Shown here: positions 1 through 29,572 of the stretch, piece after piece
Layout: each line of letters opens with the position of its first letter
Numbering within the stretch: the stretch's first letter is position 1
NCBI GenBank assembly: GCA_000004695.1
Contig: CM000150.2
Span: 2,112,001-2,176,000 of the forward strand
DNA length: 64,000 nucleotides
Source of the DNA: Dictyostelium discoideum
Taxonomy: Eukaryota
Direction of reading: 5' to 3'
The notes under the pieces: generated by a model
Seen by the model: only the letters and a program-made list of their open reading frames with translations
The model's database searches: none
What the model was told of the DNA's origin: nothing
Program-made: the position numbers and the translations under genes

Positions 1-649
1 TATTATTATTGACTGGTATATTATTTAATGATTTCTTTATTGGTGTTGATTTTGAATTTGAAATTTTCTTTTTTTTTATTACTTTTTTATCATCAATATC
101 ACTTGCATCACTTGCATCTTCTTCATCTTCTTCTTCATCACCTCCACCACTACCCTCTTCATCACCTTCTTCATATTCATCACCTTCTCCATCCTCATAA
201 TCACCTTCTCCATCATCTTCATTATATTCTTCTTTACTATTATTTGAATTAACTTCATCTCCTATATCTACATCTTCTGATTCATCTTTATTATTATTAC
301 TATTATTATTACTACTACTACTATTATCATCAGATTGATCTGTATTTCTTTTTGTTGGTGTTAATGTTGAAGCAGGACGTTTTAATGATAATTTTACTTT
401 AATTGAAGCAGGTGGTGGTTGTGATGGTGGATTCTTACCACTTGCTTTTGATATTGGTTTTGATTTTGTTTTTGCTACTTTTTTTTTATTTGATGAATCT
501 GAATCTGATGCTTCATTATCATATAAATCATCAGTTGTAGTATTTGTTTCTTCCTCTTGTTCACCATCGCTTTCACTATTTTCACTTCCTGAAAAAAAAT
601 TCTTATTTATTGGTTTTCTACTCCTTTTTCCATTAAGTGTATTAACCAT
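1..649 (-). CDS. 5' partial CDS of an acidic, Lys/Ser/Asn-rich low-complexity protein. The ATG is at 649..647 on the minus strand and the ORF runs off the window start. The N-terminus reads MVNTLNGKRSRKPINKNFFSGSENSESDGEQEEE...
   Basis: Hand translation of the minus strand from the ATG at 649 stays open to position 1 with Dictyostelium-like codon usage. It encodes acidic D/E blocks and KKK runs. It is not in the ORF track, probably because it is truncated at the window edge. Confidence 0.4.
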   Translation of the reverse strand, partial: MVNTLNGKRSRKPINKNFFSGSENSESDGEQEEETNTTTDDLYDNEASDSDSSNKKKVAKTKSKPISKASGKNPPSQPPPASIKVKLSLKRPASTLTPTKRNTDQSDDNSSSSNNNSNNNKDESEDVDIGDEVNSNNSKEEYNEDDGEGDYEDGEGDEYEEGDEEGSGGGDEEEDEEDASDASDIDDKKVIKKKKISNSKSTPIKKSLNNIPVNNN

Positions 650-696
650 TTTATATATTGTTTTAAAAATATGTATATATGTATTTGTTTGGTTTA

Positions 697-735
<39 letters not shown>

Positions 736-1024
736 AAAAAATGAAAAAATAAATAAAAAAAAAAATAAAAATAAAAGTAAAAAATTTCAAAAAATTCCAA
801 AATAAAAAAAAAAAAACAAAAATTACAAAAACAAATAACTGCTGATTTAAATAATTTGATAAAATAATAAATGTTTTAAAATTTATTTGAACTAATTATA
901 TATTTTTTTTTTTTTCATTTTTTTGTAAGTGAGATATGGATTTTTTTTTTTTTTCGGATATTTTTTGGATATTTTTTTTTTTTTTTTTTTTTGGAAAGAC
1001 TTGGAAAAAAAAGACTAAATTAAT

Positions 1025-4020
1025 TTATTTTCTTCCACCTTTACCTTTACCTTTTTTACCTTTACCTTTGTTGTTATTATTATTGTTGTTTGGTTTTTTT
1101 GGTTGGTTAGCGTTGGTGGTAGTTTGTTCAGTGGTAGTATTAGAGGCTTCATCGACTTCTTCACCTTCTTCGGTTTCTTCTTTGTTTTCAGTTTCAGTTG
1201 GTTTAGCTTGTTCAGTGGTTGATTCTTCTACTTTGGTTTCTTCTTGGACTGGTTCTTCAACTTTGGTTTCTTCTTGAACTGGTTCTTCAACTTTAGTTTC
1301 TTCTTGGACTGGTTCTTCAACTTTAGTTTCTTCTTGAACTGGTTCTTCAACTTTAGTTTCTTCTTGGACTGGTTCTTCAACTTTGATTTCTTCTTGAACT
1401 GGTTCTTCAACTTTAGTTTCTTCTTGGACTGGTTCTTCAACTTTAGTTTCTTCGGCAGCTTTTTCAGCGGCGGCTTCAGCTTCTAATCTTTCTTTTTCGG
1501 CTTGTGCAGCGGCGGCAGCTTCAGCTTCTAATCTTTCTTTTTCGGCTTGGGCAGCAGCGGCTTCAGCTTCTAATCTTTCTTTTTCTAAACGTTCAGTTTC
1601 TTCTTTTTCTAATCTTTCTTTTTCGGCTTGGGCAGCGGCGGCAGCTTCAGCTTCTAATCTTTCTTTTTCAGCTTGAGCAGCGGCAGCTTCAGCTTCTAAT
1701 TTTTCTTTTTCAGCTTGAGCGGCAGCGGCGGCTTCAGCTTCTAATCTTTCTTTTTCAGCTTGAGCAGCGGCGGCTTCAGCTTCTAATTTTTCTTTTTCTA
1801 AACGTTCAGCTTCTTCTTTTTCTAATCTTTCTTTTTCGGCTTGAGCAGCAGCTTCAGCTTCAGCTTCTAATTTTTCTTTTTCAGCTTGAGCAGCAGCAGC
1901 AGCTTCAGCTTCTAATCTTTCTTTTTCGGCTTGTGCAGCAGCGGCGGCTTCAGCTTCTAATCTTTCTTTTTCAGCTTGAGCAGCGGCGGCTTCAGCTTCT
2001 AATTTTTCTTTTTCTAAACGTTCAGCTTCTTCTTTTTCAGCTTGAGCAGCAGCGGCGGCTTCAGCTTCTAATCTTTCTTTTTCGGCTTGAGCAGCAGCGG
2101 CGGCTTCAGCTTCTAATCTTTCTTTTTCAGCTTGAGCAGCGGCGGCAGCTTCGGCTTCTAATCTTTCTTTTTCGGCTTGGGCAGCAGCGGCAGCTTCAGC
2201 TTCTAATTTTTCTTTTTCAGCTTGAGCAGCGGCGGCAGCTTCGGCTTCTAATTTCTCTTTTTCTAAACGTTCAGTTTCTTCTTTTTCTAATCTTTCTTTT
2301 TCAGCTTGAGCGGCAGCGGCGGCTTCAGCTTCTAATCTTTCTTTTTCAGCTTGAGTAGCAGCGGCGGCTTCAGCTTCTAATTTTTCTTTTTCTAAACGAT
2401 CAGCTTCTTCTTTTTCTAATCTTTCTTTTTCAGCTTGAACGGCAGCGGCGGCTTCAGCTTCTAATCTTTCTTTTTCAGCTTGGGCGGCAGCGGCGGCTTC
2501 AGCTTCTAATCTTTCTTTTTCAGCTTGAGCAGCAGCGGCGGCTTCAGCTTCTAATCTTTCTTTTTCTAATTTATCTGCTTCTTCTTTTTCTAAACGTTCT
2601 TTTTCAGCTTGAGCGGCTGCTGCTGCTTCTTGTTGTTGTTTTTCTAAATTTTCTTGAGCTTCCTTTTCATCTTTAATTCTCTTTTCTTCAGCTTCTTTGG
2701 CAACTCTTTCAGCCTCTTCCTTTTCTAAACGCTCTTTTTCTAATTTTGCTGCTGCTTCTTCTTTTTCTAAACGTTCTTTTTCTTCTTTTTCTTTTGAATC
2801 ATCAACAACTGGTTCTGGTTTTGATTCTTCAACAACTGGTTTTGATTCTTCGACTACTGGTTTTGATTCTTCGACAACTGGTTTTGATTCTTCAACAACT
2901 GGTTTTGATTCTTCAACAACTGGTGAAGAAGTAGTTGTAGTAGTTGTAGTTGTTGTAGAAGTAGTAGTAGTGTTAATATTTGATGATGGTGATTCATTTT
3001 TAGCATTTTCAATTCTTTCTTTAATCCATTCTAAAATATAAGTAACAAATTCTTCTTTAGCAAATTCATTATGAACTTCATGATACATATTTTCCCAAAG
3101 TTTTAAAGTTTTATCGACAGTTGATGGAACACGATCATAGAATTGTTGTGAAGCTTTTGGACAAGTGATTTTATCATCATTAGCGTGAACCAATAATAAT
3201 GGAGTATCAAATTGTGGTGCTAAATCAATGAGTTGTTCAGAACGTTGTAACATCCATTTAGCCATACCCAATGAGATTTTATTGTGAACCAATTTATCTT
3301 GTTTATATTCGTTTACGACTGCAGAATCTTTAGAGATTAAAGTTGGATCGATTGAATTGCTGATGGTCCATGATGGCATGAGACCACCCAATAAATTACC
3401 CATACTAAGTTTGACACCTGATACTTTGATTGCTGGTTTAATCAATGGTGATGTAACGATACAACCTGCTGGATGGTGATCTTTCTTCTTTAAATTGTAA
3501 TGAAGTGCTAAACAACCACCAAAACTATGACCATAGATAAAATGTGGTACATCGGTTTCAGCTGTTGATGCAATTAATTGAATATCTTTTAATGATTGTT
3601 CGAGTGATGGTGAATGACCTCTAACACCACTTGAAATACCATGACCTCTTTGATCGAATGCATTTACTTTAATACCTTGTTCTGCAAATCTACTAAAAAC
3701 ATGTTCATAACGACCACTATGTTCACCTAAACCATGAATCTAAATAATAAAAAGTTTTTTATTAAAATTAAGTTACACATAAATTTTTTTTTTTTTTTTT
3801 TTTTTTTTTCCCTCTTAATTTTTTTTTTTTTTTTTTTTCCCACGAATCTCAAAAATAAAAAAAAAAAAAAAAAATAATGAAAAAGAAGGGGTGAAGGGGT
3901 TTATTATTGGTTTTAAAAAACTTACCATGGTAACTGTGGCAATTGGTTTAACTTTTGGCTATGAAATATAAAAATAAATTATTAAGAAAATTAATATCCA
4001 TGCATTATTATTTGAATTTG

Positions 4021-4070
<50 letters not shown>

Positions 4071-4145
4071 ATTACTTACAGTCCATGTTCTAAGTGATAA
4101 AGTTTCTTTATCAGATGTTAATAAATTACTAACTGATGATGTCAT
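1025..4145 (-). CDS. Monoacylglycerol-lipase-like alpha/beta hydrolase fused to a very long low-complexity coiled-coil/repeat tail. Three exons: join(1025..3739, 3926..3958, 4080..4145), minus strand.
   Basis: Exon 1 encodes MTSSVSNLLTSDKETLSLRTWT and ends at a GTAAGT donor. A 33-nt micro-exon encodes PKVKPIATVTM. Exon 3 begins IHGLGEHSGRYEHV.. with the HGxGEH oxyanion motif and the GHSFGG nucleophile elbow, then ..LLVHANDDKITCP..MYHEV (Asp and His of the triad). After the hydrolase domain come a poly-T/S linker, about seven PVVEESK repeats, more than 25 tandem 15-aa AEKERLEAEAAAAAQ repeats (45-bp DNA repeat), seven VEEPVQEETK repeats and a KGKGKKGKGKGGRK tail. The six-frame track shows only 1025..3445 because an alternative start was counted. 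Confidence 0.75.
1456..2700. repeat. About 45-bp tandem repeat array with more than 25 copies of gcttcagcttctaatctttctttttcggcttgagcagcggcggc. It is coding on the minus strand inside the hydrolase gene. Flanking arrays are a 30-bp repeat at 1240..1440 and a 21-bp repeat at 2810..2930.
   Basis: Periodicity is directly visible in the sequence. On the minus strand it translates to AEKERLEAEAAAAAQ units. Confidence 0.9.
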
Positions 4146-4938
4146 TTTAATTTATTATTTTCAATATATGTGTTTTATTTATTTTCTTTCTTTTTTTATT
4201 TTTTTTATATTTAATTTCTTTATTCTTTTTTTATGAAAAACACACACAAATTAATCTTATCTCTTTTTTTTCAGAATATTTTTTTATTTGAAAAGTTAAA
4301 AAAAAAAAAAAAATTAAATTAAAAAGGGAACTAAACTTGTAAGAGACAATTTTAATAAAATAAAAAAAATAAAAAAAAAAAATAAAAAAAAAAAAAAATT
4401 ATTGACGAAAATAAAAAAATAAAAAAAAATTAAAAAAAATTAATTTTTTTTTTTGGCGAAAGTTATTTCAAATAAATAGTTTTTGGATCAAAATAAATAT
4501 ATATTTTAATTCCAAAAAAAATAAAAAAAAATAAAAAAAATAAAAATAAAAATAAAAAAAAAAAAATATTGATTTCTTGGTTTCATTAACGACCTTTTTA
4601 TATTTTCAATTAAATCTCATTCTATTTCAATACCAAACACACATTTTATTTAAAATCTAAAATAATCGAAGTAATATGTTAAAATAAAAAAAAAATAAAA
4701 AAATATTTTAATTAAAAAAAAAAAAAGTAATAATAATAATAATTTTCCTAATAATTATTCATTATAATTTATTCCATATAAATTATCAAGTTCAAATAAC
4801 TTAAAATTCCAGAATATAGATTTTATTTTTTTTTTTTTTATTTTTTTTTTTTTTTTTCTTTTTTTTTTTTTATTTTTTTTATTTTATTTTTTTTTTTTTT
4901 TTATTTTTAAAACTTTTAATCAAAAAATAAAAATAAAA

Positions 4939-4992
4939 ATGGCAGATATTGAAGATTATGGTATTTTTTTTAAATTAATTAAAAAAGATTCA

Positions 4993-5049
<57 letters not shown>

Positions 5050-6255
5050 GTATTTTTTAAAGTTTGGAGAAATGTTGTATTAAAATTAAATATATTAGGA
5101 AAATTAAGATTATTAAAGGAAAATTATAAAAAGTCATTCTCAAGTTTTAGTGAATTGGATAATTATATATATAAGGATTATATTTCAATTATTTATTTAA
5201 GTGAAAATAAAAATTCAATAAATCTAAGTAAATTACCACACTCAATTACAAAATTACACTTTAAATATGATTTTAATAAACCAATTATTTCAATCTCAAA
5301 TAAAGCAACAAATTTAACAACAATAATCTTTGGTGAATCTTTTAATAATTCATTATGTAATTTACCATTATCTTTAACAAATTTAAAATTTGGTAATAAT
5401 TTTAATCAACCTATAGGAAATAGTAATATTAATAGTAAATTATTACCAGATTCAATTAAAACACTTGAATTTGGTGATGATTTCAATCAACCATTATCAT
5501 CATCATCATCACCATCATCCTCTTTAATTTATTTACCATCATCTTTAACATTTTTAAAATTTGGTAATAAATTCAATCAAAGATTAAATATTGGTGACTT
5601 TTTATTATTACCACCAACAATAGTTCATTTGGAATTTGGTAATCAATTTTACAATGGTCATGAAACAAATACATCAATTGACTTTAATCAAAATTTTATA
5701 CCAAATAGTGTTACATCAATTGTTGTTGGTGATTTTTTCAATAATAGTTTTCAACATGATCTTGATGGTGGTGATGGTGGTGGTGGTATTGAATCACTAT
5801 ATAAAAATAAAAATATAACTTCATTTAGTTATTGTCCAAATTTTAATAAACCAATAACACCAAATTCAATTCCTGAAACAACAATATTTTTAAAATTCTC
5901 TGCAAGATTTAATCAAATAATTAAATATGGTGATATTCCAAATAGAGTAAAATATATTACGTTTGGAAATGATTTCAATTTACCATTAATTAGAAATGAT
6001 GATAGTAATAATAATAATATTAGTGTATTACCACCATCAATAACTGATATTGAATTTGGTAAATATTATAATCAACCATTTCAACGTGGTTTAATTGGTG
6101 AAAATGTAAAATCAATTAAGTTTGGTCAAAACTTTAATAAACTATTAAAACCAGGTGATATTCCAAGTTCTGTAACATCTTTAAAATTTAACTCTTTTCA
6201 TAGACAATCAAGTCATGTAATTCCATCCACTGTTACCTCATTAATATATGAATAA
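4939..6255 (+). CDS. FNIP-repeat protein, 438 aa, single exon.
   Basis: Multiple about 22-aa repeats of the form L(P)xS(I/L)xxLxFGxxFNQP(I/L), matching the Dictyostelium FNIP repeat. There is an N-terminal poly-Asn run. The N-terminus (FFKVWRNVVLKLNI) is similar to the second FNIP gene at 50449..52638. Confidence 0.7.
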
Positions 6256-6380
6256 ACACTGATATTTAAAAAAAGTATATTTTTTTTTTTTTTTTTATTA
6301 ATTATACATAAAAAAACATATTATTATTATATTATATTATATTATTTATTATTATAAATTTGGAATTATATTTTACTAGA

Positions 6381-6442
6381 TTATCTCCATGAATCACTTT
6401 GGTAACTTGAGCTGTTGTTGTTATTTTTAGCACCAATACCCC

Positions 6443-6482
<40 letters not shown>

Positions 6483-7262
6483 AATTTTAAAAGAAAAATT
6501 AGTATTTTATAAAGTAATAATAATAATAATTTATAATTTATAATTATTATAATAATAATAATAACTTACTTTAGCTCTCATTTCATCTCTACGTCTATCA
6601 GTGATTGGAGTACGAGAAACCAAACGTTCAGTTTCATCATCTTGAATGTTATGATAGTGTTTATCTTTCTTTCTTCTACAACAACAACAACAAAGGCAAA
6701 TAAAGAAGAAGACAATAATTAAGAAGGCACCACCAGCAGCAATTAAAATTGCCCAACGACCTTGAATTTTACATTGCATCCACATGAAATCTTTACAGGC
6801 ACCATTGATATTTAATGGTTTAGTACCATAGAATGTACCTTCAGTGCAAATACCTTCTGATCCACACCAAACACATCCTTTATCTTCTCTACAATCACCA
6901 CATGAAGTGTATTCACCACAACCAGTGTTATCTGTTGAATTACTTACACCACTGCTACTTCCATTAATACTACTTGTGAGTGAGTATTGATGATCAATTT
7001 CTGAACTATTTACAACTGTTTTTTTTTTAAAATAAAAATAAAAATAAAAATATTTATTAGTAAAAAAAGGATACAGAGGTTTTTTTTTTTTTTTTTTTGT
7101 TTTGTTTTGTGTTGTCGTTTTTTTTTTTTTTTTTTTTTTTTTAGTTTTTGTTTTATTTTTTTTATTTTTAGTTTTTTTTTATTTTTTATTTTTAAATAAT
7201 AAAAACATACAGGTTAAAAAAACAGTTAAACATAAAAAGAAACCAATAATGAATTTATTCAT
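6381..7262 (-). CDS. Small type I membrane protein with a signal peptide and a PSI (plexin/semaphorin/integrin)-like Cys-rich domain. Three exons: join(6381..6443, 6560..7015, 7211..7262), minus strand.
   Basis: Exon 1 encodes MNKFIIGFFLCLTVFLT and ends at a GTATGT donor. Exon 2 encodes ..GCGEYTSCGDCREDKGCVWCGSEGICTEG.. (PSI pattern CxxxxSCxxCxxxxxCxWC), then the TM segment WAILIAAGGAFLIIVFFFICLCCCCC, then a basic tail ending ..DEMRAK at a GTAAGT donor. Exon 3 encodes WGIGAKNNNNSSSYQSDSWR and a stop. Phases are consistent (1/0). The track shows only 6531..6785. Confidence 0.5.
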
Positions 7263-7745
7263 TTTTGTTTTATATTTGTTATAAATAAAAATTTAAATGG
7301 GAAAAAAAAAAAATAAAAATTAAAAAAAAATTAAAAATTAAAAATTAAAAAATAAAAAAGTTTTTATGTGGTTGGAAAAAATAAAAAATAAAAAAAATTA
7401 AATAAAAAATAAAAAATAAAAAAAAAAAAAAAAATAAAAAAACAGAAAAAAAGTCTTTTTTTTGAGATATTTATTTTCCTCAAAAAAATAGGTAAAAGAA
7501 ATTTAATTAGTTTTTTGTTTTTTTTTTTAAATAATTATTACTATTAAATTCCTAAAATTTAAAATATTGATATTCTTAATACTCAAAAAAATAAAAAAAA
7601 TAAAAAAAAATAAAAAAAAAATAATAAAACAATTTATTTAAATAAAGCTAGTAAATTTTCCTACTTATTTCATTTTTTTAAATTTCACCCAAACATTATT
7701 TTTTTTTTTTTTTCAAAACGTCATCACACACCACACACCCACAAT

Positions 7746-7793
<48 letters not shown>

Positions 7794-7908
7794 TTTATTT
7801 TTTTTTTTTTTTTGATTGGAAAAAAAAAAGATACCCAAAACCATAATTATGTTTGAGGCTATATCTATTAAGATTTTTATCTCTTTAAAAAATAGGTTTA
7901 TTTTTTTC

Positions 7909-7945
<37 letters not shown>

Positions 7946-8273
7946 AAAAATTTAATACTCAAAAAACCAAAAAACTCAAAAATTGAATGGTTTGGTGAAA
8001 ATCCAAACTGATTATTATTATCATAAGGTTACATTCCCAAAAAAATTTATAACAATTTTTCTAGTTTTCAAAATTATATATATCTTCAAAAAATAAAAAA
8101 ATAAAAAAATAAAAGTTTTTATTATTTATTTGTATAAAATGAGTTTAAAAAAAAAAAAATAAAATAAAAAAAAAATTAAAGAAAATAATAATAATAATAG
8201 TAATAATAATAATTACCCCATCCGACTGATGAGATCAAATAGATATAGATAATTTCGATCACTAAATTTTTCC

Positions 8274-8322
<49 letters not shown>

Positions 8323-8421
8323 AAGAATATAAATAGAATTAAAACCAAGTTTTTTTTTCTTATAATTATTTTTTTTTTTATTGTTATTGCTATTTTTTTT
8401 TTTTTAATAAATAAGATATGT

Positions 8422-8465
<44 letters not shown>

Positions 8466-8473
8466 GTTAATTG

Positions 8474-9175
8474 TTATAATTTTACATTTGAACCTTGATT
8501 AACATCATTTGAGATACCAAAAAACAATTGTTCTGAAGCAGTTACAATGGCGGATAATCCATTCAATTGATCTTCATTTGATAATTTCCTTTTAAAAGAA
8601 CCAATTCCTACATTGGTCATCCTAGAGTTTTGATATGCTGGTGATGGTACATACTCTGAAATATTATAGTTATTATAACTACTATAGTAATTGTAACCAT
8701 TATTTTCAGTGGAATCCTTTGATGATGATAATTTATCAATATTATTATTATTATTATAATTATTTATGTTAAATGTTGGTGGGAAACCTTCTAATGCTGT
8801 ATTATTATTATTATTATTATTAATTAACTTATCATTATGATTTATTGATTGAAGATTTGGTGAGAGATTAGTTGGAGTATTAGTGGCAGATGAAAAATTT
8901 AGTGATTCTGATGATATTGTTGGTGATGTGGTTGTGGTTGTAGTAGTAGTAGTAGTAGTTGTTGAAGGTATTGGTGGAGAAGATGAAGATAATAGTGATG
9001 ATAAGAATGAAGATGATGAAGATGATGATTGTGATGAAAAAGAAGATGGTCTTGATAATGGTAAAGAATCATCTTGTTGTGAATTTGATTGTGATGAAAA
9101 TGAAGATGGTCTTGATAATGGTAAATGATCATCTTTTTGTTGTTGTTGTTGTATTATTTGTTGTTGTTGTATTAT

Positions 9176-21096: not shown

Positions 21097-21727
21097 AATA
21101 AAAATAAAAACTTACAAAAAATAAAATAAATAAAAAAATAAAAAGGTAACTGATTTGATTTGATTTCTTTTTTTTTTGGTTAATCTTATTTTAATAATAT
21201 TATTATTGTTTTTTATTTTTATTGCCGTTGTGAAAAAAAAGACTTTGAAAAATTTTAAAAAAAAAAAAAAAAAAAAATTTTAAAAAATAAAAATAAAAAA
21301 TAAAAAAAAAAAAAATAAAACAAAAAAAAAGATTTTTATACACATTTTTTAAAATTTTAGATAATATCCTACTTCTTATCTTTTTAAACTCGATCGTATT
21401 TTTTTTTTTTTTTTTTTAAACAATATTTTTTATTATTTTCCTATTATTAATTTAGAATCATTTATTCTTAAAAAAGTAAAAACTATATTTTTTTTTCTTT
21501 TTTAACTATCCATCTTGAGGTATGCGGATATTGAAGTTCTAGGTAATCCAACCCTATTGTTTTTAACAACACTTGTGAAAAAAAAAAAAAAAATTATGAC
21601 CTTCATATAATTTAAGAGTGAGAAGTAGGGTTGTGGATTTGTTAGGGGCGTTTTTTTTATTTTTTTTTTACATACAACCTAATTTTTTATTTTTCACACA
21701 CATATTTTCAAATAAAATATGTAAAAA

Positions 21728-21786
21728 AAAAAAGTCCAAATCCCTTTCAAATAATTTAACTCTCTTTTAATCAACTTTTATTATCA
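21728..21786. repeat. Left arm of an inverted-repeat pair. The partner is at 24244..24298.
   Basis: aaaaagtccaaatccctttcaaataatttaactctcttttaatcaacttttatt is the reverse complement of gat..aataaaagttgattaaaagagagttaaattatttgaaaggggatttggacttttt at 24244..24298. There is one indel and about 55 of 57 identities, with weaker similarity extending about 15 bp further. Confidence 0.8.
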
Positions 21787-21977
21787 AAATAAAAATAAAA
21801 ATAAAAATAAAAATAAAAATAAAGAAATATATAATAGCGGTCAACCCCACCATCATCTTCAACAACAACTTCACCATCATCTTGTTAATTAATTACACAT
21901 ACACTCTATCACACACCCTTATCAACTTAATTTATTTAAATCAAAACCCAACGAACAAACAATCAAACCATTAACAC

Positions 21978-22021
<44 letters not shown>

Positions 22022-22255
22022 AAAAAAAGAAAATTAACCAAAAAAAAAACACTTTATTAAACTTTGTTTTGATGAGTTAAAAATTATTTAGTATTCTGTA
22101 CTATTTACATTTTGATCTATAATAATTACTTTTTTCCCCAATTTAATAATAAAATTAATGGTTATATATGGTTGCATAATATTGTGTGACTCACCTCTAC
22201 CTGTTTTTCCAAGTGTAATTCCTGTTTTTACATGTGTGGTTACAATATCCTTATG

Positions 22256-22666
22256 TTATTGATGATAATCAGAAAAACTTCCATGAGGACCACTACTGAA
22301 ACCACCTCCAATAGAATGCCATGTATGACCTGGGTCAATTACGGGATGATCATGAGATGGCAATTCTGAAACTGTTAAAAGATGATTTGTTAAACCAACT
22401 CCATTTCCTGCACCTATTGGACATTTACCACGAAAATCTGGTTTTGAAAATTCATGTTCACTTGAACCAAATGCATCTCCAATTTGTCGATATAATTCTG
22501 GATATGTTAATTTATTTAATGGAGCTCCATCACAAAGAGACCAACCAACTGGTATTTCAATACCTGTAAAAATATTAACTGATCCAGGTTGGATTGAATT
22601 TTCAATTTTTTTTTCTAAATTTGCAACTGCAAGTTTTTGTTTTGTTTCAATGGCTAATTTTGACAT
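22256..22666 (-). CDS. Phage tail-collar domain (microcystin-dependent protein MdpB-like) protein, 136 aa, intronless.
   Basis: MSKLAIETKQKLAVANLEKKIENSIQPGSVNIFTGIEIPVGWSLCDGAPLNKLTYPELYRQIGDAFGSSEHEFSKPDFRGKCPIGAGNGVGLTNHLLTVSELPSHDHPVIDPGHTWH... This matches the Phage_tail_collar consensus (..IxxFAGxxxPxGWLxCDGxxLxxxxYPxLFxxIGxxYGG...FxLPDLRGRxPxGxGxGxGL...xxMPxHxH). It is a bacterial/phage-type domain sitting inside the inverted-repeat-bounded segment. Confidence 0.7.
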   Translation of the reverse strand: MSKLAIETKQKLAVANLEKKIENSIQPGSVNIFTGIEIPVGWSLCDGAPLNKLTYPELYRQIGDAFGSSEHEFSKPDFRGKCPIGAGNGVGLTNHLLTVSELPSHDHPVIDPGHTWHSIGGGFSSGPHGSFSDYHQ

Positions 22667-22689
22667 TTTCTTTTTTAATCTTTTTTAAA

Positions 22690-22974
22690 TTACTTTGAAC
22701 TTTGTAATAGTTTATATAATAAGCCAGATTTCTTGATATAAATACAACAGTGACAATAAATGGTAAGATAAACATTAAGATATTTGATGCTTCTTCTTGC
22801 TTTGATATCAGCATTTGCTAAAGTTTCTGCACAATTTACCATTGCATTGGATACAGCAGTTGAAGATTTTTCAAGACCTTTAGAAACTTGTTTCAAACCA
22901 TCACCAATTTCAGCTCCACCTTATCAACTCCTAAACCAAGAGCACCCAAACTAAAACCGATGATTTCCATAAAA
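22690..22974 (-). pseudogene. Small ORF encoding a glycine-zipper/amphipathic peptide with an apparent +1 frameshift: MEIIGFSLGALGLGVDK | GGAEIGDGLKQVSKGLEKSSTAVSNAMVNCAETLANADIKARRS... It lies immediately upstream of the tail-collar ORF on the same strand.
   Basis: The ATG at 22974 opens a 25-codon frame that hits a stop. One nucleotide later the next frame (track ORF 22690..22896) continues a sensible peptide. No intron of plausible length separates the two frames. It ends 23 nt before the tail-collar ATG. Confidence 0.3.
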
Positions 22975-24243
22975 AAAATAGAAAAAACTCACAAAATAAA
23001 TATCTAATAATGATTGGGGAGTTTTTTTATAATTATAAATTTTTTTTTTTTTTTTTTTTAATTTCAAGAAAAATAAATAATTATTAGAATTTTTAAAAAT
23101 AAATAACTGGTAGGAAACAGATATTGATAAAATAGAAGAACTATTTATTTTAGAAGCTAATGTGGAAGTTTTGATCGTGTTCTATTAAAATTATTAGAAA
23201 TTATTAACTTAATATTTTAAAAAAAAAAAAATAAAAATAAAAATAATAAAATTAAATTGGTGCCAAAGAAAAAAAAAATAATTAAATAAAAAAAAAATTA
23301 AATTAATAAATAAAAAAATTTTAATTAATTAAATAAAAAAATTAAATAAAAAAATTAAATAAAAAAAAAAATTAATTAAATAAAAAAAAAAAAAAAAAAT
23401 AATAATAATAATAATAATACAAAATTGGTTAATTATTTACAAATATTAATATTGGTTTAATAATTTTAAAAATATATTTGTTTATGGTGTTTATGTTCTT
23501 TTGTTATGTTTAAAGTGATCAAAAAATTATAATTCAAACTTGTATACTATATTCATAACAAGCTGGAAGGATGATGTCTATATCAAGAGGATCAGAAGTC
23601 CATGGGAAGGGTTTGCCGAATTTACTTGATGAATGATTCATTTGAAATTTAAAACATTATGATTAATCGAGACATTTTTATTATATTGAGTTTGATTTTA
23701 TTGTGGAGTTTTCCCCTTTTTTTTTTTTTTTTTTTTTTTAACCCTTGCCCCTTTTTTTTTTGTAAACAAACTAAAATGGCTTTTTAAGAATTTATTTTTT
23801 ATTTTCCCACAAAAAAAATTCATAATGTGGAAATTAATAAAATAATGTTTTAAAAAAAGGGTAAAAATTAATAAGATGTAGGGGACTGTAAAATTAACAT
23901 TACACAATATCAAATTTTTTTTTTTCCCACAAAATCTATTTTTATACCAGTTCCATATACATTTGCTTTTTATTTTTTTTTTTTTTGATTATTTTGATTT
24001 TTTCACATAAAGTGTCATCAACAAATTAAAAATTTAATTTAAAAAAATAAAAAAATAAAAAAAATAAAAAAAAATTTTCAACTGAAAAACCATTTTTTTT
24101 TTTTTTTGAATAAAAAAATAATAAAAACTTATAGTGCTTATATGATCATATGACATTATTAAATAAATAAGTTTTTTATAATTTTATTTTTTTTTTAATT
24201 ATATAATTTTACTAGTAAAATTATTTAATTAATTTTTATTTGA

Positions 24244-24298
24244 TCAATAAAAGTTGATTAAAAGAGAGTTAAATTATTTGAAAGGGGATTTGGACTTT
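24244..24298. repeat. Right arm of the inverted-repeat pair (partner 21728..21786).
   Basis: See the left arm. The two arms bound a 2.5 kb segment that contains the tail-collar ORF. Confidence 0.8.
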
Positions 24299-25155: not shown

Positions 25156-27957
25156 ATGTCAGAAGAACCAACCCCAGTTTCAGGTAATGACAAACAACTC
25201 TTGAACAAAGCTTGGGAAATTACCCAAAAAAAAGTAAAATATTATTATTTTTTCTATTCAAAAAAAAAAAAAAAAAAATAAATAAATAAATATAATAAAA
25301 TTTTATTAATTTTTTTTATTATTATTATTATTTTTTAAAAATATTTAGACTTTCACAGCATGGTGTAATTCACATTTACGTAAACTTGGATCATCAATTG
25401 AACAAATTGATACAGATTTTACTGATGGTATTAAATTAGCTCAATTATTAGAAGTTATTTCAAATGATCCAGTATTTAAAGTAAACAAAACACCAAAATT
25501 AAGAATTCATAATATCCAAAATGTTGGTCTCTGTTTAAAACATATTGAATCACATGGTGTTAAATTGGTTGGTATTGGTGCTGAAGAGTTAGTTGATAAA
25601 AACTTAAAGATGACTTTGGGTATGATTTGGACAATCATTCTTCGTTTTGCCATTCAAGATATTTCAATTGAAGAATTGAGTGCCAAAGAAGCCCTTTTAC
25701 TTTGGTGTCAAAGAAAGACCGAAGGTTATGACCGTGTTAAAGTTGGTAATTTCCATACCTCATTCCAAGATGGTCTTGCCTTTTGTGCTCTCATCCATAA
25801 ACATAGACCAGATTTAATCAACTTTGACTCTTTAAACAAAGATGATAAAGCTGGTAACTTACAATTGGCTTTTGATATTGCCGAAAAAGAATTGGATATC
25901 CCAAAGATGTTGGATGTTTCCGATATGCTCGATGTCGTTCGTCCAGATGAAAGATCAGTCATGACCTACGTCGCTCAATACTACCATCACTTTTCTGCCT
26001 CTAGAAAAGCTGAAACCGCCGGTAAACAAGTTGGTAAAGTTTTAGATACCTTTATGTTGTTAGAACAAACCAAATCTGATTATCTTAAAAGAGCCAATGA
26101 ACTCGTTCAATGGATTAACGATAAACAAGCATCACTTGAATCACGTGATTTTGGTGATTCCATCGAATCTGTTCAAAGTTTCATGAACGCTCATAAAGAA
26201 TATAAAAAAACCGAAAAACCACCAAAGGGTCAAGAAGTCTCTGAATTGGAAGCTATCTACAATTCATTACAAACTAAATTACGTTTAATTAAACGTGAAC
26301 CATTTGTTGCACCAGCTGGTCTCACTCCAAATGAAATCGATTCCACTTGGTCCGCTTTAGAGAAAGCTGAACAAGAACATGCTGAAGCCCTCCGTATTGA
26401 ACTCAAACGTCAAAAGAAAATTGCAGTTCTCTTACAAAAATACAATCGTATTCTCAAGAAACTCGAAAACTGGGCCACCACCAAATCTGTCTACCTCGGT
26501 TCCAATGAAACCGGTGACAGTATCACTGCTGTTCAAGCTAAATTAAAGAATTTAGAAGCTTTTGATGGTGAATGTCAATCATTGGAAGGTCAATCAAACT
26601 CTGATCTCCTCAGCATTCTTGCTCAATTAACTGAACTCAACTACAATGGTGTACCAGAACTCACTGAACGTAAAGATACATTCTTTGCTCAACAATGGAC
26701 TGGTGTTAAATCATCTGCTGAAACCTACAAAAACACTCTTTTAGCTGAACTTGAAAGACTCCAAAAGATTGAAGACTCATTGGTCGAATTCGCCAAGAGA
26801 GCCGCTCAATTAAATGTTTGGATTGAAGCTGCCGATGATCATGTATTTGATCCAATCAATGTTGACTCTGTTCAAGGTGTCCAAGAAATTCAAGAGAAAT
26901 TCGACGCTTTCCTCCACGATCAATCACAACAATTCGCTGAATTGGAAGCCCTCGCTGCTTTAACTCAACAACTCCGTGAACTCGGTCGTTCTGAAAACGA
27001 TTATTCAGTCATTTCATACGATGAACTCTCTGCCAAATGGAATAATTTATTGGCTGGTATTGAAGAACGTAAAGTTCAACTCGCCAATGAACTCACCACT
27101 CAAACCAACAACGATGTTCTTTGCCAATCATTCTCTGTTAAAGCAAATGAAATTTCAGATTATGTCCGTGTTACTTTAGATGCCATCTCACAAAACACTT
27201 CATCAGATCCACAAGAACAATTAAACAATATCCGTGCTATCATCACCGCTCATGCTGAAAAGAAACCAGAACTCGATGAATTATACACCATTGCTTCTCA
27301 ACTCGAAGAAGCTCAAGTTGTCGATAACAAACATACTCAACACAGTTTAGAATCAATTAAATTAAAATGGGATAAACTCAATACACTCGCTAAAAAGAAT
27401 GAACAAGTTGTTGAAGGTGAAATTCTTGCTAAACAATTAACTGGTGTTACTGCTGAAGAATTAAGTGAATTTAAAGGTATGTATAATTTATTTATTATAA
27501 ATATTAATTAAATTATTTAAAACTCGTCCAATGATTAATAAATAACTTTTTTTAATTAATTAACATGAACGAAAAAGCCTGCTTCTCACATTTCGATAAG
27601 GACAACGATAACAAATTAAATCGTCTTGAATTCTCCTCTTGCTTGAAGAGTATCGGAGATGAATTAACTGAAGAACAATTAAATCAAGTCATCAGTAAAA
27701 TCGATACCGATGGTAATGGTACCATTTCATTCGAAGAATTTATTGATTACATGGTTTCATCACGTAAAGGTACAGACAGCGTTGAATCAACTAAAGCTGC
27801 ATTCAAAGTTATGGCTGAGGATAAAGATTTCATTACTGAAGCTCAAATTCGTGCTGCTATCTCTGATTCTAAACAAATTGATTATTTACTCGCCAGTATG
27901 CCAGCTGTTGAAGGTGGTTTTGACTACAATTCATTTGCTGAAAAATTATACCAATAA
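25156..27957 (+). CDS. abpA: Alpha-actinin (F-actin cross-linking protein). Three exons: join(25156..25233, 25349..27476, 27578..27957), 861 aa.
   Basis: Exon 1 (MSEEPTPVSGNDKQLLNKAWEITQKK) is followed by exon 2 starting TFTAWCNSHLRK, with two calponin-homology domains (..DGIKLAQLLEVIS.., ..LLLWCQRKTEGY..DGLAFCALIHKHRPDLI..) and four spectrin-like repeats. The ..EFKG donor is GTATGT. Exon 3 begins (A)CFSHFDKDNDNKLNRLEF and carries two EF-hands (DKDNDNKLNRLEF, DTDGNGTISFEEF). This matches Dictyostelium alpha-actinin as I recall it. Confidence 0.9.
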
Positions 27958-28100: not shown

Positions 28101-28230
28101 TGGGAGAATTCAAGACGATTTAATTTGTTATCCTTATCCTTATCGAAATGTGAGTAGCAGGCTTTTTCGTTCATGTTAATTAATTAATTAAAAAAAGTTA
28201 TTTATTAATCATTGGATGAGTTTTAAATAA
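28101..28230 (-). repeat. Inverted partial duplicate of the abpA intron-2/exon-3 junction (original 27519..27645), about 95% identical.
   Basis: The reverse complement of 28101..28230 reads ttatttaaaactcatccaatgattaataaataactttttttaattaattaattaacatgaacgaaaaagcctgctactcacatttcgataaggataaggataacaaattaaatcgtcttgaattctccc. This matches 27519..27645 with a few substitutions. Confidence 0.8.
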
Positions 28231-29134: not shown

Positions 29135-29200
29135 TATGTATGTATGTATGTATGTATGTATGTATGTATGTATGTATGTATGTATGTATGTATGTATGAT
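29135..29200. repeat. (ATGT)n microsatellite, about 16 units.
   Basis: A perfect tetranucleotide run is visible. Confidence 0.95.
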
Positions 29201-29202
29201 TT

Positions 29203-29572
29203 ATAAATAACTTTTTTTAATTAATTAATTAACATGAACAAAAAAGCCTGCTTCTCGCATTTCTACAAGGATAAAGACAACAAATTAAATCGTCTTGAGT
29301 TTAGTTCTAGCTTGAAGAGTATCGGAGATGAATTAACTGAAGAATAATTAAATCAAGTCATCAGTAAAATCGACACGGATGGTAATGGTACCATTTCATT
29401 AGAAGAATTTATTGATTACATGGTTTCATCACGTAAAGGTACAGACAGCGTTGAATCAAATAAATGCTGCTATCCCTGATTCTAAACAAATTGATTATTT
29501 ACTTGCCAGCATGCCAGCTGTTGAAGGTGGTTTTGATTACAATTCATTTGCTGAAAATTATTAATAAATTAA
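29203..29572 (+). pseudogene. Degraded direct copy of the abpA 3' EF-hand exon plus about 40 bp of the preceding intron (original 27540..27960).
   Basis: Colinear, about 90% identical: ..ttaattaattaacatgaacaaaaaagcctgcttctcgcatttctacaaggataaagacaacaaattaaatcgtcttgagtt.. It contains an in-frame stop (GAA TAA where abpA has GAA CAA), an internal deletion of about 57 bp (the ..TKAAFKVMAEDKDFITEAQIRAA.. region is missing) and a changed terminus. It has no upstream exons. Confidence 0.75.

Follow-up and report, generated by a model that had tools for sequence, protein, structure and literature searches.

In a 64,000-nt stretch of chromosome 1 of Dictyostelium discoideum AX4 (contig CM000150.2, positions 2,112,001 to 2,176,000; in the following called the window), a small open reading frame (ORF) with a broken frame is found on the minus strand, some 2.2 kb upstream of the alpha-actinin A gene abpA, which is represented by ORFs from position 25156 onward showing 100% identity with the AX4 protein. 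With a probability that we would put at roughly 0.88, this small ORF is a unitary pseudogene comprising the first 57 and the last few codons of a gene for a 187-aa protein, situated in a strain-variable island of foreign DNA. It is arranged head-to-tail with a phage tail-collar gene (DDB_G0269088) which is itself disabled in AX4. The lesions in AX4 were deduced by comparison with the Dictyostelium cf. discoideum assembly GCA_054859235.1 (L041). For this and the other genomes, that is, D. citrinum (L038), D. purpureum, the D. discoideum-labelled strains ACTFIR (L042) and ACTFIW (L043) and, as a third strain besides AX4 and L041, D. cf. discoideum ACTFIY (GCA_054859205.1, contig JBTAPH010000036.1; L040), the syntenic regions were located via their alpha-actinin orthologues.

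In L041, positions 8036-7473 form an uninterrupted ORF of 187 codons in which both halves of the small ORF are contiguous. It starts with MEIIGIGLGALGLGIGKGGAEIGNGLEQ... and its translation reads MEIIGIGLGALGLGIGKGGAEIGNGLEQVSKGLEKSSTAVSNAMINSAETLADAGIR...CAFIFPTILGSFTVISMLILAALYLKEQLSKYYKHQIF, the annotated L041 gene beginning at the MEIIG ATG. The intact protein carries a glycine zipper at its N-terminus (IIGxGLGALGLGxG), followed by a polar region of some 130 residues and by a single strong hydrophobic helix, which is C-terminal at about residues 150-175. Against this orthologous ORF, two disabling deletions are evident in AX4. At the frame break, the L041 sequence GGT AAA GGT GGA is opposed by GAT AA- GGT GGA, corresponding to the loss of one A from the Lys-17 codon (22921..22922, where AX4 has AA and L041 the Lys codon AAA). 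Furthermore, gapped alignment and blastn blocks against L041 reveal the loss of 367 nt of the gene body (L041 7863-7514 and 7509-7493 remain unmatched) at a junction at 22794..22799, by which about 122 codons including those for the C-terminal transmembrane helix are gone. As a consequence of both deletions, the ancestral C-terminal codons and stop fall in the third frame, translation of the AX4 sequence from the ATG ends after 25 codons, and the ancestral protein is unreachable in any frame. Both lesions are reproduced in independent sequence data: the assembly GCA_054883475.1 is identical to AX4 across 22019-23263, and six read-derived Logan contigs, which inform on the sequence and not on transcription, match AX4 at the frame-break site 22920-22925 and also carry the 367-nt deletion. 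Hence, the lesions are not due to sequencing error.

As it stands in AX4, the gene remnant can be divided into several parts. The first segment (22920..22970) consists of the ATG at 22970-22968 and codons 1-17 (MEIIGFSLGALGLGVDK), representing the glycine-zipper N-terminus, and is collinear and in frame with L041 codons 1-17. Exactly at this ATG, the GC content jumps from about 10-18% to about 35-40%. The ATG frame is closed by a stop at 22893-22895, giving a 25-aa peptide (MEIIGFSLGALGLGVDKVELKLVMV). The second segment (22801..22920) contains the ancestral codons 18-57 (GGAEIGDGLKQV...ANADIK) at -1 relative to the ATG frame, the neighbouring-frame reading of 22920-22801 being GGAEIGDGLKQVSKGLEKSSTAVSNAMVNCAETLANADIK (GGAEIG...ADIK). 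It is identified by 81% amino-acid identity with L041 and by its codon score; in a model trained on the long ORFs of the window, it reaches 0.46 bits per codon at a GC content of third codon positions (GC3) of 0.10, close to the 0.48 bits and 0.07 of the collar ORF, with the reservation that this score casts strong antisense shadows and is unable to assign the strand. The initial annotation of this stretch had already joined the two halves into one ORF (GVDK followed by GGAEIG), which is corroborated by the contiguous GIGK GGAEIG of L041, and had rightly seen no room for an intron at the frame break. The +1 frameshift stated there is a -1 shift in translational terms, as the downstream frame starts one base back. 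Likewise, the extent given for the ORF is appropriate up to ...ADIK, representing ancestral coding sequence, and not for the remaining tail ARRSIKYLNV...SSK (22690..22800, stop TAA at 22692-22690), which results from read-through of the 367-nt deletion junction, has a codon score of -0.35 bits per codon and is without counterpart in the L041 protein. The true end of the gene is found at 22775..22792: the final sense codons of the ancestral ORF (K H Q I S), followed by its stop TAA (22777-22775), are now in the third frame, L041 ending with ...YYKHQIF and AX4 with ...KKKHQIS. From there, a spacer of 108 nt (22667..22774; 107 nt in L041, 89% nucleotide identity) extends to the collar ATG. It lies 3' of the stop that ends the intact ORF of L041, holds a chance ORF resembling a transmembrane segment (QEEASNILMFILPFIVTVVF...), and stands in a different frame relative to the collar ATG in each of the two genomes. 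The operon-like distance of 23 nt noted initially, from the TAA at 22692-22690 to the collar ATG at 22666, is therefore an artefact of following the wrong frame after the deletion.

Some other arrangements of these segments were considered and dismissed. A three-segment model, first drawn from codon scores, combined both segments with the transmembrane-like stretch QEEASNILMFILPFIVTVVF... (22799-22650) via two compensating frameshifts; it is ruled out, as in L041 the latter stretch follows the stop and the true C-terminus is encoded in the third frame. A 120-nt GT..AG intron leading from the first to this third segment is incompatible with its GC content of 36%, compared to the nearly pure A+T of the abpA intron, and with the contiguous orthologue of L041. 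Finally, the upstream segments are not an N-terminal part that the collar protein has lost, since the N-termini of its homologues are equally short. As an observation on sequence diversity, contigs from at least six SRA runs (L002-L007, window 22005-23057) represent a second AX4-type allele with single-nucleotide polymorphisms at 22959 (synonymous) and 22952 (S7G, matching L041), both of which affect its initial codons of the small ORF.

In line with the gene being dead, the signature of purifying selection is lost at the locus. Comparing AX4 with L041, a ratio of non-synonymous to synonymous substitution rates (dN/dS) of 0.68 at a dS of 0.13 was obtained for the small ORF, albeit from small counts (56 codons, 5 synonymous and 11 non-synonymous changes), and 0.87 at a dS of 0.095 for the collar gene (187 codons). 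The host gene for alpha-actinin, on the other hand, shows a dN/dS of 0.05 at a dS of 0.119. The high ratios indicate that the block of both genes has been essentially unconstrained since the split of AX4 and L041, while the similarity of island and host dS points to vertical inheritance from their common ancestor. An island younger than this split, acquired independently in both lineages, is ruled out by the same dS comparison.

The proposal of the initial annotation that the pair is of foreign origin is supported by its distribution. At the syntenic site, collar gene, small ORF and intervening DNA are missing in D. citrinum, D. purpureum and the two D. discoideum strains ACTFIR and ACTFIW, and the relatives of the collar gene are phage, bacterial and viral. 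In AX4-type genomes, both genes reside on an insert of about 2.4 kb (approximate limits 21634..24049), with empty sites in L038, L042 and L043. In D. citrinum, about 124 nt (L038 8627-8751) stand for window positions 21482-24041, and in L042 and L043 the empty site corresponds to window positions 21633-24041/24050. ACTFIR and ACTFIW are nearer to AX4 than L041 is (actinin dS of 0.07) and also have an empty site; the actinin dS to D. citrinum amounts to 0.49. Being absent from the sister species and present in AX4 and L041, the block would therefore have been acquired once D. citrinum had branched off; since then, it has disappeared from lineages of the D. discoideum group or is still segregating among them.

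The islands are associated with a conserved 38-nt core (AAAAGTTGATTAAAAGAGAGTTAAATTATTTGAAAGGG). In AX4, two perfect copies in inverted orientation flank the insert, the left one at 21742..21779 (minus strand) and the right one at 24249..24286 (plus strand), the latter in the ancestral position occupied by the sole copy of the empty-site genomes. In L041, two direct copies (2921-2958 and 9019-9061) flank a larger island of about 5.6 kb. A single copy is found in L038 (8942-8979), L042 (5078-5115), L043 (5109-5146) and L040 (8925-8962), so that the core is duplicated only where the island is present, that is, in AX4 and L041. The islands of the latter two have only the segment of about 0.9 kb with collar gene and small ORF in common. 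The element itself is non-coding, about 0.9 kb upstream of abpA, without an Rfam match, and kept in strains of the D. discoideum group and in D. citrinum, which is unusual for AT-rich intergenic DNA.

Taken together, the two-gene block would be foreign DNA acquired by the lineage after the D. citrinum split and before the divergence of AX4 and L041, and would then have evolved without protein-level constraint, with decay proceeding faster in AX4 than in L041. The loss of the A from the Lys-17 codon and of 367 nt of gene body in AX4 is directly seen, and the small ORF would now do nothing in this strain.

Several other explanations have to be weighed against a dead gene remnant. The initial annotation had left open whether the frame break reflects sequencing error, pseudogenization or a programmed event, and had recommended inspecting the consensus at about 22920..22930 for a homopolymer miscall. 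A truly intact gene obscured by an error of the reference would be conceivable from the position of the missing base in a short, miscall-prone A run, but has become practically negligible, as the independent assembly and all six Logan contigs read the same at 22920-22925 and share the 367-nt deletion. Programmed -1 ribosomal frameshifting, joining the halves into a functional short AX4 protein, would agree with halves that abut without a stop between shift site and new frame and with the strong coding signal in the second frame. However, L041 carries both halves in one frame, so that the shift is not conserved, a slippery heptamer of the type X XXY YYZ is lacking at or near the shift (GGA GTT GAT AAG GTG GAG), the shifted product would run into the 367-nt deletion with two thirds of the protein including the membrane anchor gone, and the neighbouring gene is likewise decaying; we consider this explanation hardly credible. 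Of the three causes named initially, only pseudogenization is thus sustained. The same low standing applies to chance open frames in AT-rich DNA that were never a gene, which the initial annotation would have concluded from a lack of homologues. Indeed, the joined AX4 peptide did not match anything among 5.8 and 1.84 billion proteins except for the gene model at its own locus, and distant homologues are lacking. Nevertheless, the L041 orthologue proves a real gene remnant: with about 7.5% of random codons being stops at the given base composition, an open frame of 187 codons would arise by chance with a probability of about 5e-7 (own arithmetic), and the codon-position bias is as strong as in the collar gene.

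Two further alternatives assume a live function in AX4. According to the NCBI model ACTFIT_008096 (P0018), the locus would be a spliced gene of 107 aa, with exon 1 (MNHSSS...YEYS) at 23641-23548 linked to an acceptor AG at 22921-22920 and MEIIGF... being a chance intronic ORF. The model is on record, GT at 23547 and AG at 22921-22920 are present, and the exon-1 island exceeds the flanking sequence in GC content. In L041, however, the sequence runs from the MEIIG ATG straight into GGAEIG and is annotated so, with the exon-1 island missing. Moreover, the second half of the P0018 product (ARRS...SSK) is the out-of-frame read-through of the deletion junction, the exon-1 island lacks a positive codon score, and the intron of 628 nt (23547-22920) would be several times longer than the abpA intron of about 115 nt and would finish in 50 nt of coding-like sequence of 33% GC, while the abpA intron is nearly pure A+T. 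A spliced gene is accordingly very improbable. Hardly better founded, and still clearly improbable, is a new role of the remnant in AX4, either as a hydrophobic micropeptide of 25 aa (MEIIGFSLGALGLGVDKVELKLVMV) or within a transcript continuing into the collar gene, as its 5' leader or an upstream ORF. This would be compatible with ATG and first 17 codons being kept in all AX4-type sequences, with the only two polymorphisms of the 1-kb Logan allele falling here, one synonymous and the other, S7G, restoring the L041 state, and with the short spacer of 108 nt to the collar gene. On the other side, the downstream collar gene is disabled, evolution is neutral-like, the sequence is T-rich just upstream of the small-ORF ATG whereas the context of the collar ATG is A-rich, and the sequence-based analysis gave no evidence of expression.

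The assignment as a unitary pseudogene has to be balanced with some points that weigh against it. On the same footing as just described, the transcript or the 25-aa peptide may have a residual role in AX4. Two public annotations carry protein-coding models at the locus, P0145 in AX4 and P0018 in ACTFIT. The dN/dS of the small ORF is based on 16 substitutions in all. In addition, a poly-A run in the collar gene of L041 (at about 7313) contains one A too many, whether through an error of assembly or as a genuine lesion, so that the locus used as the intact reference is perhaps non-functional as well. Lastly, as the 187-aa protein did not yield a homologue in any search, its former function is accessible by inference only, and so is the foreign donor.

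The decay of the neighbouring tail-collar gene (22088..22666, minus strand; DDB_G0269088, Q55EP2), whose database protein XP_646978.1 from AX4 is an exact translation of the window sequence, follows the same pattern. The collar ORF scores 56.3 bits with the Pfam family Collar (PF07484; cutoff of 24), above the gathering score, and matches PHROG tail families over nearly its whole length; the alignment with the tail protein profile PHROG 9116 (E = 6e-21) crosses an in-frame TAA at 22258-22256, past which the family-conserved C-terminus HNIMQPYITINFIIKL resumes in frame. L041 has a His codon at the position of this TAA and keeps 33 nt (NRVIGSKGGEE) and 6 nt that are absent from AX4 (deletions at 22389/22388 and 22329/22328, respectively). 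Both the 33-nt segment and the residues directly after the stop are conserved among family members. In the AX4 reference model (166 aa, P0145), the TAA is skipped by a 78-nt GT..AG intron (22201..22278), resulting in the reading ...GPHGS joined to RGESHN.... Among the residues removed in this way is the stretch KTGITLGKTG, aligning with the TGI(T/S)...G block that is conserved in the family. Because the intron would delete conserved residues, it is more likely an annotation work-around, and the locus would be a pseudogene. A look-up of the exact 136-aa ORF did not return any record. In the second AX4-type allele, a deletion of 5 nt (22332-22328) coincides in position with the 6-nt indel that distinguishes AX4 from L041. 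In ACTFIT, a 654-aa model (L001 8976-12846, corresponding to window 22666-18796) begins at the collar ATG and covers about 3.9 kb, reaching into the next gene. Its orthologues in D. citrinum, ACTFIR and ACTFIW are modelled with 458-483 aa and leave out the collar region, and the 654-aa model is probably a fusion artefact.

Concerning the origin of the pair, searches with the collar gene point to phage minor tail proteins, bacterial proteins of the microcystin-dependent protein type and uncultured viral contigs, all at not more than 38% identity. The small gene, in contrast, is an orphan. For the 187-aa protein of L041, nothing significant was retrieved from Pfam, PHROGs, NCBIfam, PADLOC, PDB sequences, IMG/VR and JGI metagenomes. 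Matches to ZorA (15 bits) and DUF7409 (17 bits) stayed under any threshold, and an apparent metagenome hit (L044) turned out to be a PurD enzyme sharing one 8-mer. Small ORFs beside collar genes elsewhere (27 loci, including one of 68 aa in L009 and one of 120 aa in L008) are not similar to it either. From the relatives of the collar gene, we infer a virus or phage-like element as the donor, and the 187-aa protein would have been a membrane-anchored partner of the fibre-like collar protein.

A more specific and rather doubtful extension of this idea is that small ORF and collar gene are the last surviving module of an endogenous double-stranded DNA virus of dictyostelids, with the collar protein serving for fibre or attachment, the 187-aa protein as membrane anchor and the 38-nt element as recurrent integration site. 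To our knowledge, no Dictyostelium virus has been isolated so far. The idea would fit with the duplication of the core around the island in every island-bearing genome and with an element of the third strain with capsid and VLTF3 matches that abuts the same core. It would also agree with the occurrence of Collar-domain proteins in virophages and giant viruses (OLV18/19, OLPV), where such domains have likewise been reported (PMC3671162). Viral hallmark genes such as those for capsid, packaging ATPase and VLTF3 were found neither in the AX4 island nor in that of L041.

The element of the third strain deserves description on its own. In L040, directly upstream of abpA (positions 1-8960), the AX4-type sequence is replaced by no less than 9 kb of long ORFs without introns. 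A 470-aa ORF matches Pox_VLTF3 with 25.4 bits (cutoff of 25) and a 414-aa ORF the N-terminal domain of the major capsid protein of nucleocytoplasmic large DNA viruses (Capsid_N-like, E = 5e-5), and the right edge of the element adjoins the 38-nt core. Judged by these ORFs, the stretch looks like an endogenous double-stranded DNA viral element. Beyond the 38-nt core, it has no sequence in common with the AX4 island, and a scan of IMG/VR with the capsid-like protein did not give a link to the island.

Among known systems, the pair resembles unitary pseudogenes of genes acquired horizontally by eukaryotes, which display the same combination of frameshift, large deletion and nonsense mutation versus an intact orthologue, a dN/dS near 1, presence/absence variation and a compact intronless arrangement of prokaryotic or viral type. 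A difference is that here the small gene of the pair is an orphan without relatives even among phages and viruses. The small ORF and DDB_G0269088 share strand, strain-specific insert, low GC3 (0.10 and 0.07, respectively) and decay. The latter, however, belongs to a known family (PF07484) and was the only previously annotated part of the block, while the small ORF has no family. Phage minor tail and tail-fibre, virophage and giant-virus Collar proteins correspond to the neighbouring gene near full length and are encoded in dense arrays of genes, but identity is at most 38%, a gene like the small ORF is found at none of the 27 loci, and other hallmarks are missing from the AX4 and L041 islands.

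The initial annotation had further suggested a small holin-like or stress peptide. With glycine-zipper proteins and holins, the gene product indeed shares the N-terminal run of the GxxxGxxxG type and the hydrophobic C-terminal helix of the intact protein. Holins, however, are small with multiple closely spaced transmembrane segments, whereas the intact protein has 187 aa, is mostly polar and possesses one strong C-terminal transmembrane helix without family match. Accordingly, neither the joined AX4 peptide nor the L041 protein matched holin models of Pfam and PHROGs or the Gly-zipper hidden Markov models of Pfam, the latter even at E = 1 and E = 0.1, and holin and glycine-zipper models in NCBIfam and PADLOC did not match the intact 187-aa protein. 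An endolysin or other lysin is not encoded in the AX4 and L041 islands, the small ORF being accompanied by the collar gene and AT-rich spacer.

As a dead gene fragment produced by ordinary mechanisms, the small ORF itself is of modest interest, and the collar gene is already in the databases. Of more general relevance, the AX4 model DDB_G0269088 and the ACTFIT models at this site look like work-arounds for a pseudogene pair, and the intact 187-aa orphan of a wild relative defines a gene that is unrecognizable from AX4 alone. Moreover, the site upstream of abpA holds foreign DNA that differs between strains of the D. discoideum group, including the element with capsid and VLTF3 matches, each tied to the 38-nt element. 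Such an insertion hotspot could help in searching for viruses or mobile elements of social amoebae and, should the pair indeed be a viral module, would provide a handle on a Dictyostelium virus.

Some further features of the region were noted. Inside the AX4-specific insert, an isolated GC-richer stretch of about 108 nt (23534-23641; ORF MNHSSSKFGKPFPWTSDPLDIDIILPACYEYSIQV) includes the exon 1 of P0018 (23548..23641, minus strand). Neither L041 nor any other genome examined contains this stretch, no Rfam or tRNA match was obtained for it, and its exon is probably not part of the small-ORF gene. Scans of the region for tRNAs and Rfam families were likewise negative. The L041 island contains two additional ORFs, both absent from AX4 and without significant family match, one for 327 aa (4465-5448, plus strand; 39% GC) with coiled-coil repeats (NLQNQV), a repeat rich in glycine (GDGKN) and a tail rich in Cys and Pro, and the other for 132 aa (3521-3919, minus strand). 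Downstream of abpA, finally, partial duplicates of the 3' end of this gene (about 91-94% identity) are located at 27531-27800, 29196-29470 and 28103-28230, one of them being inverted.

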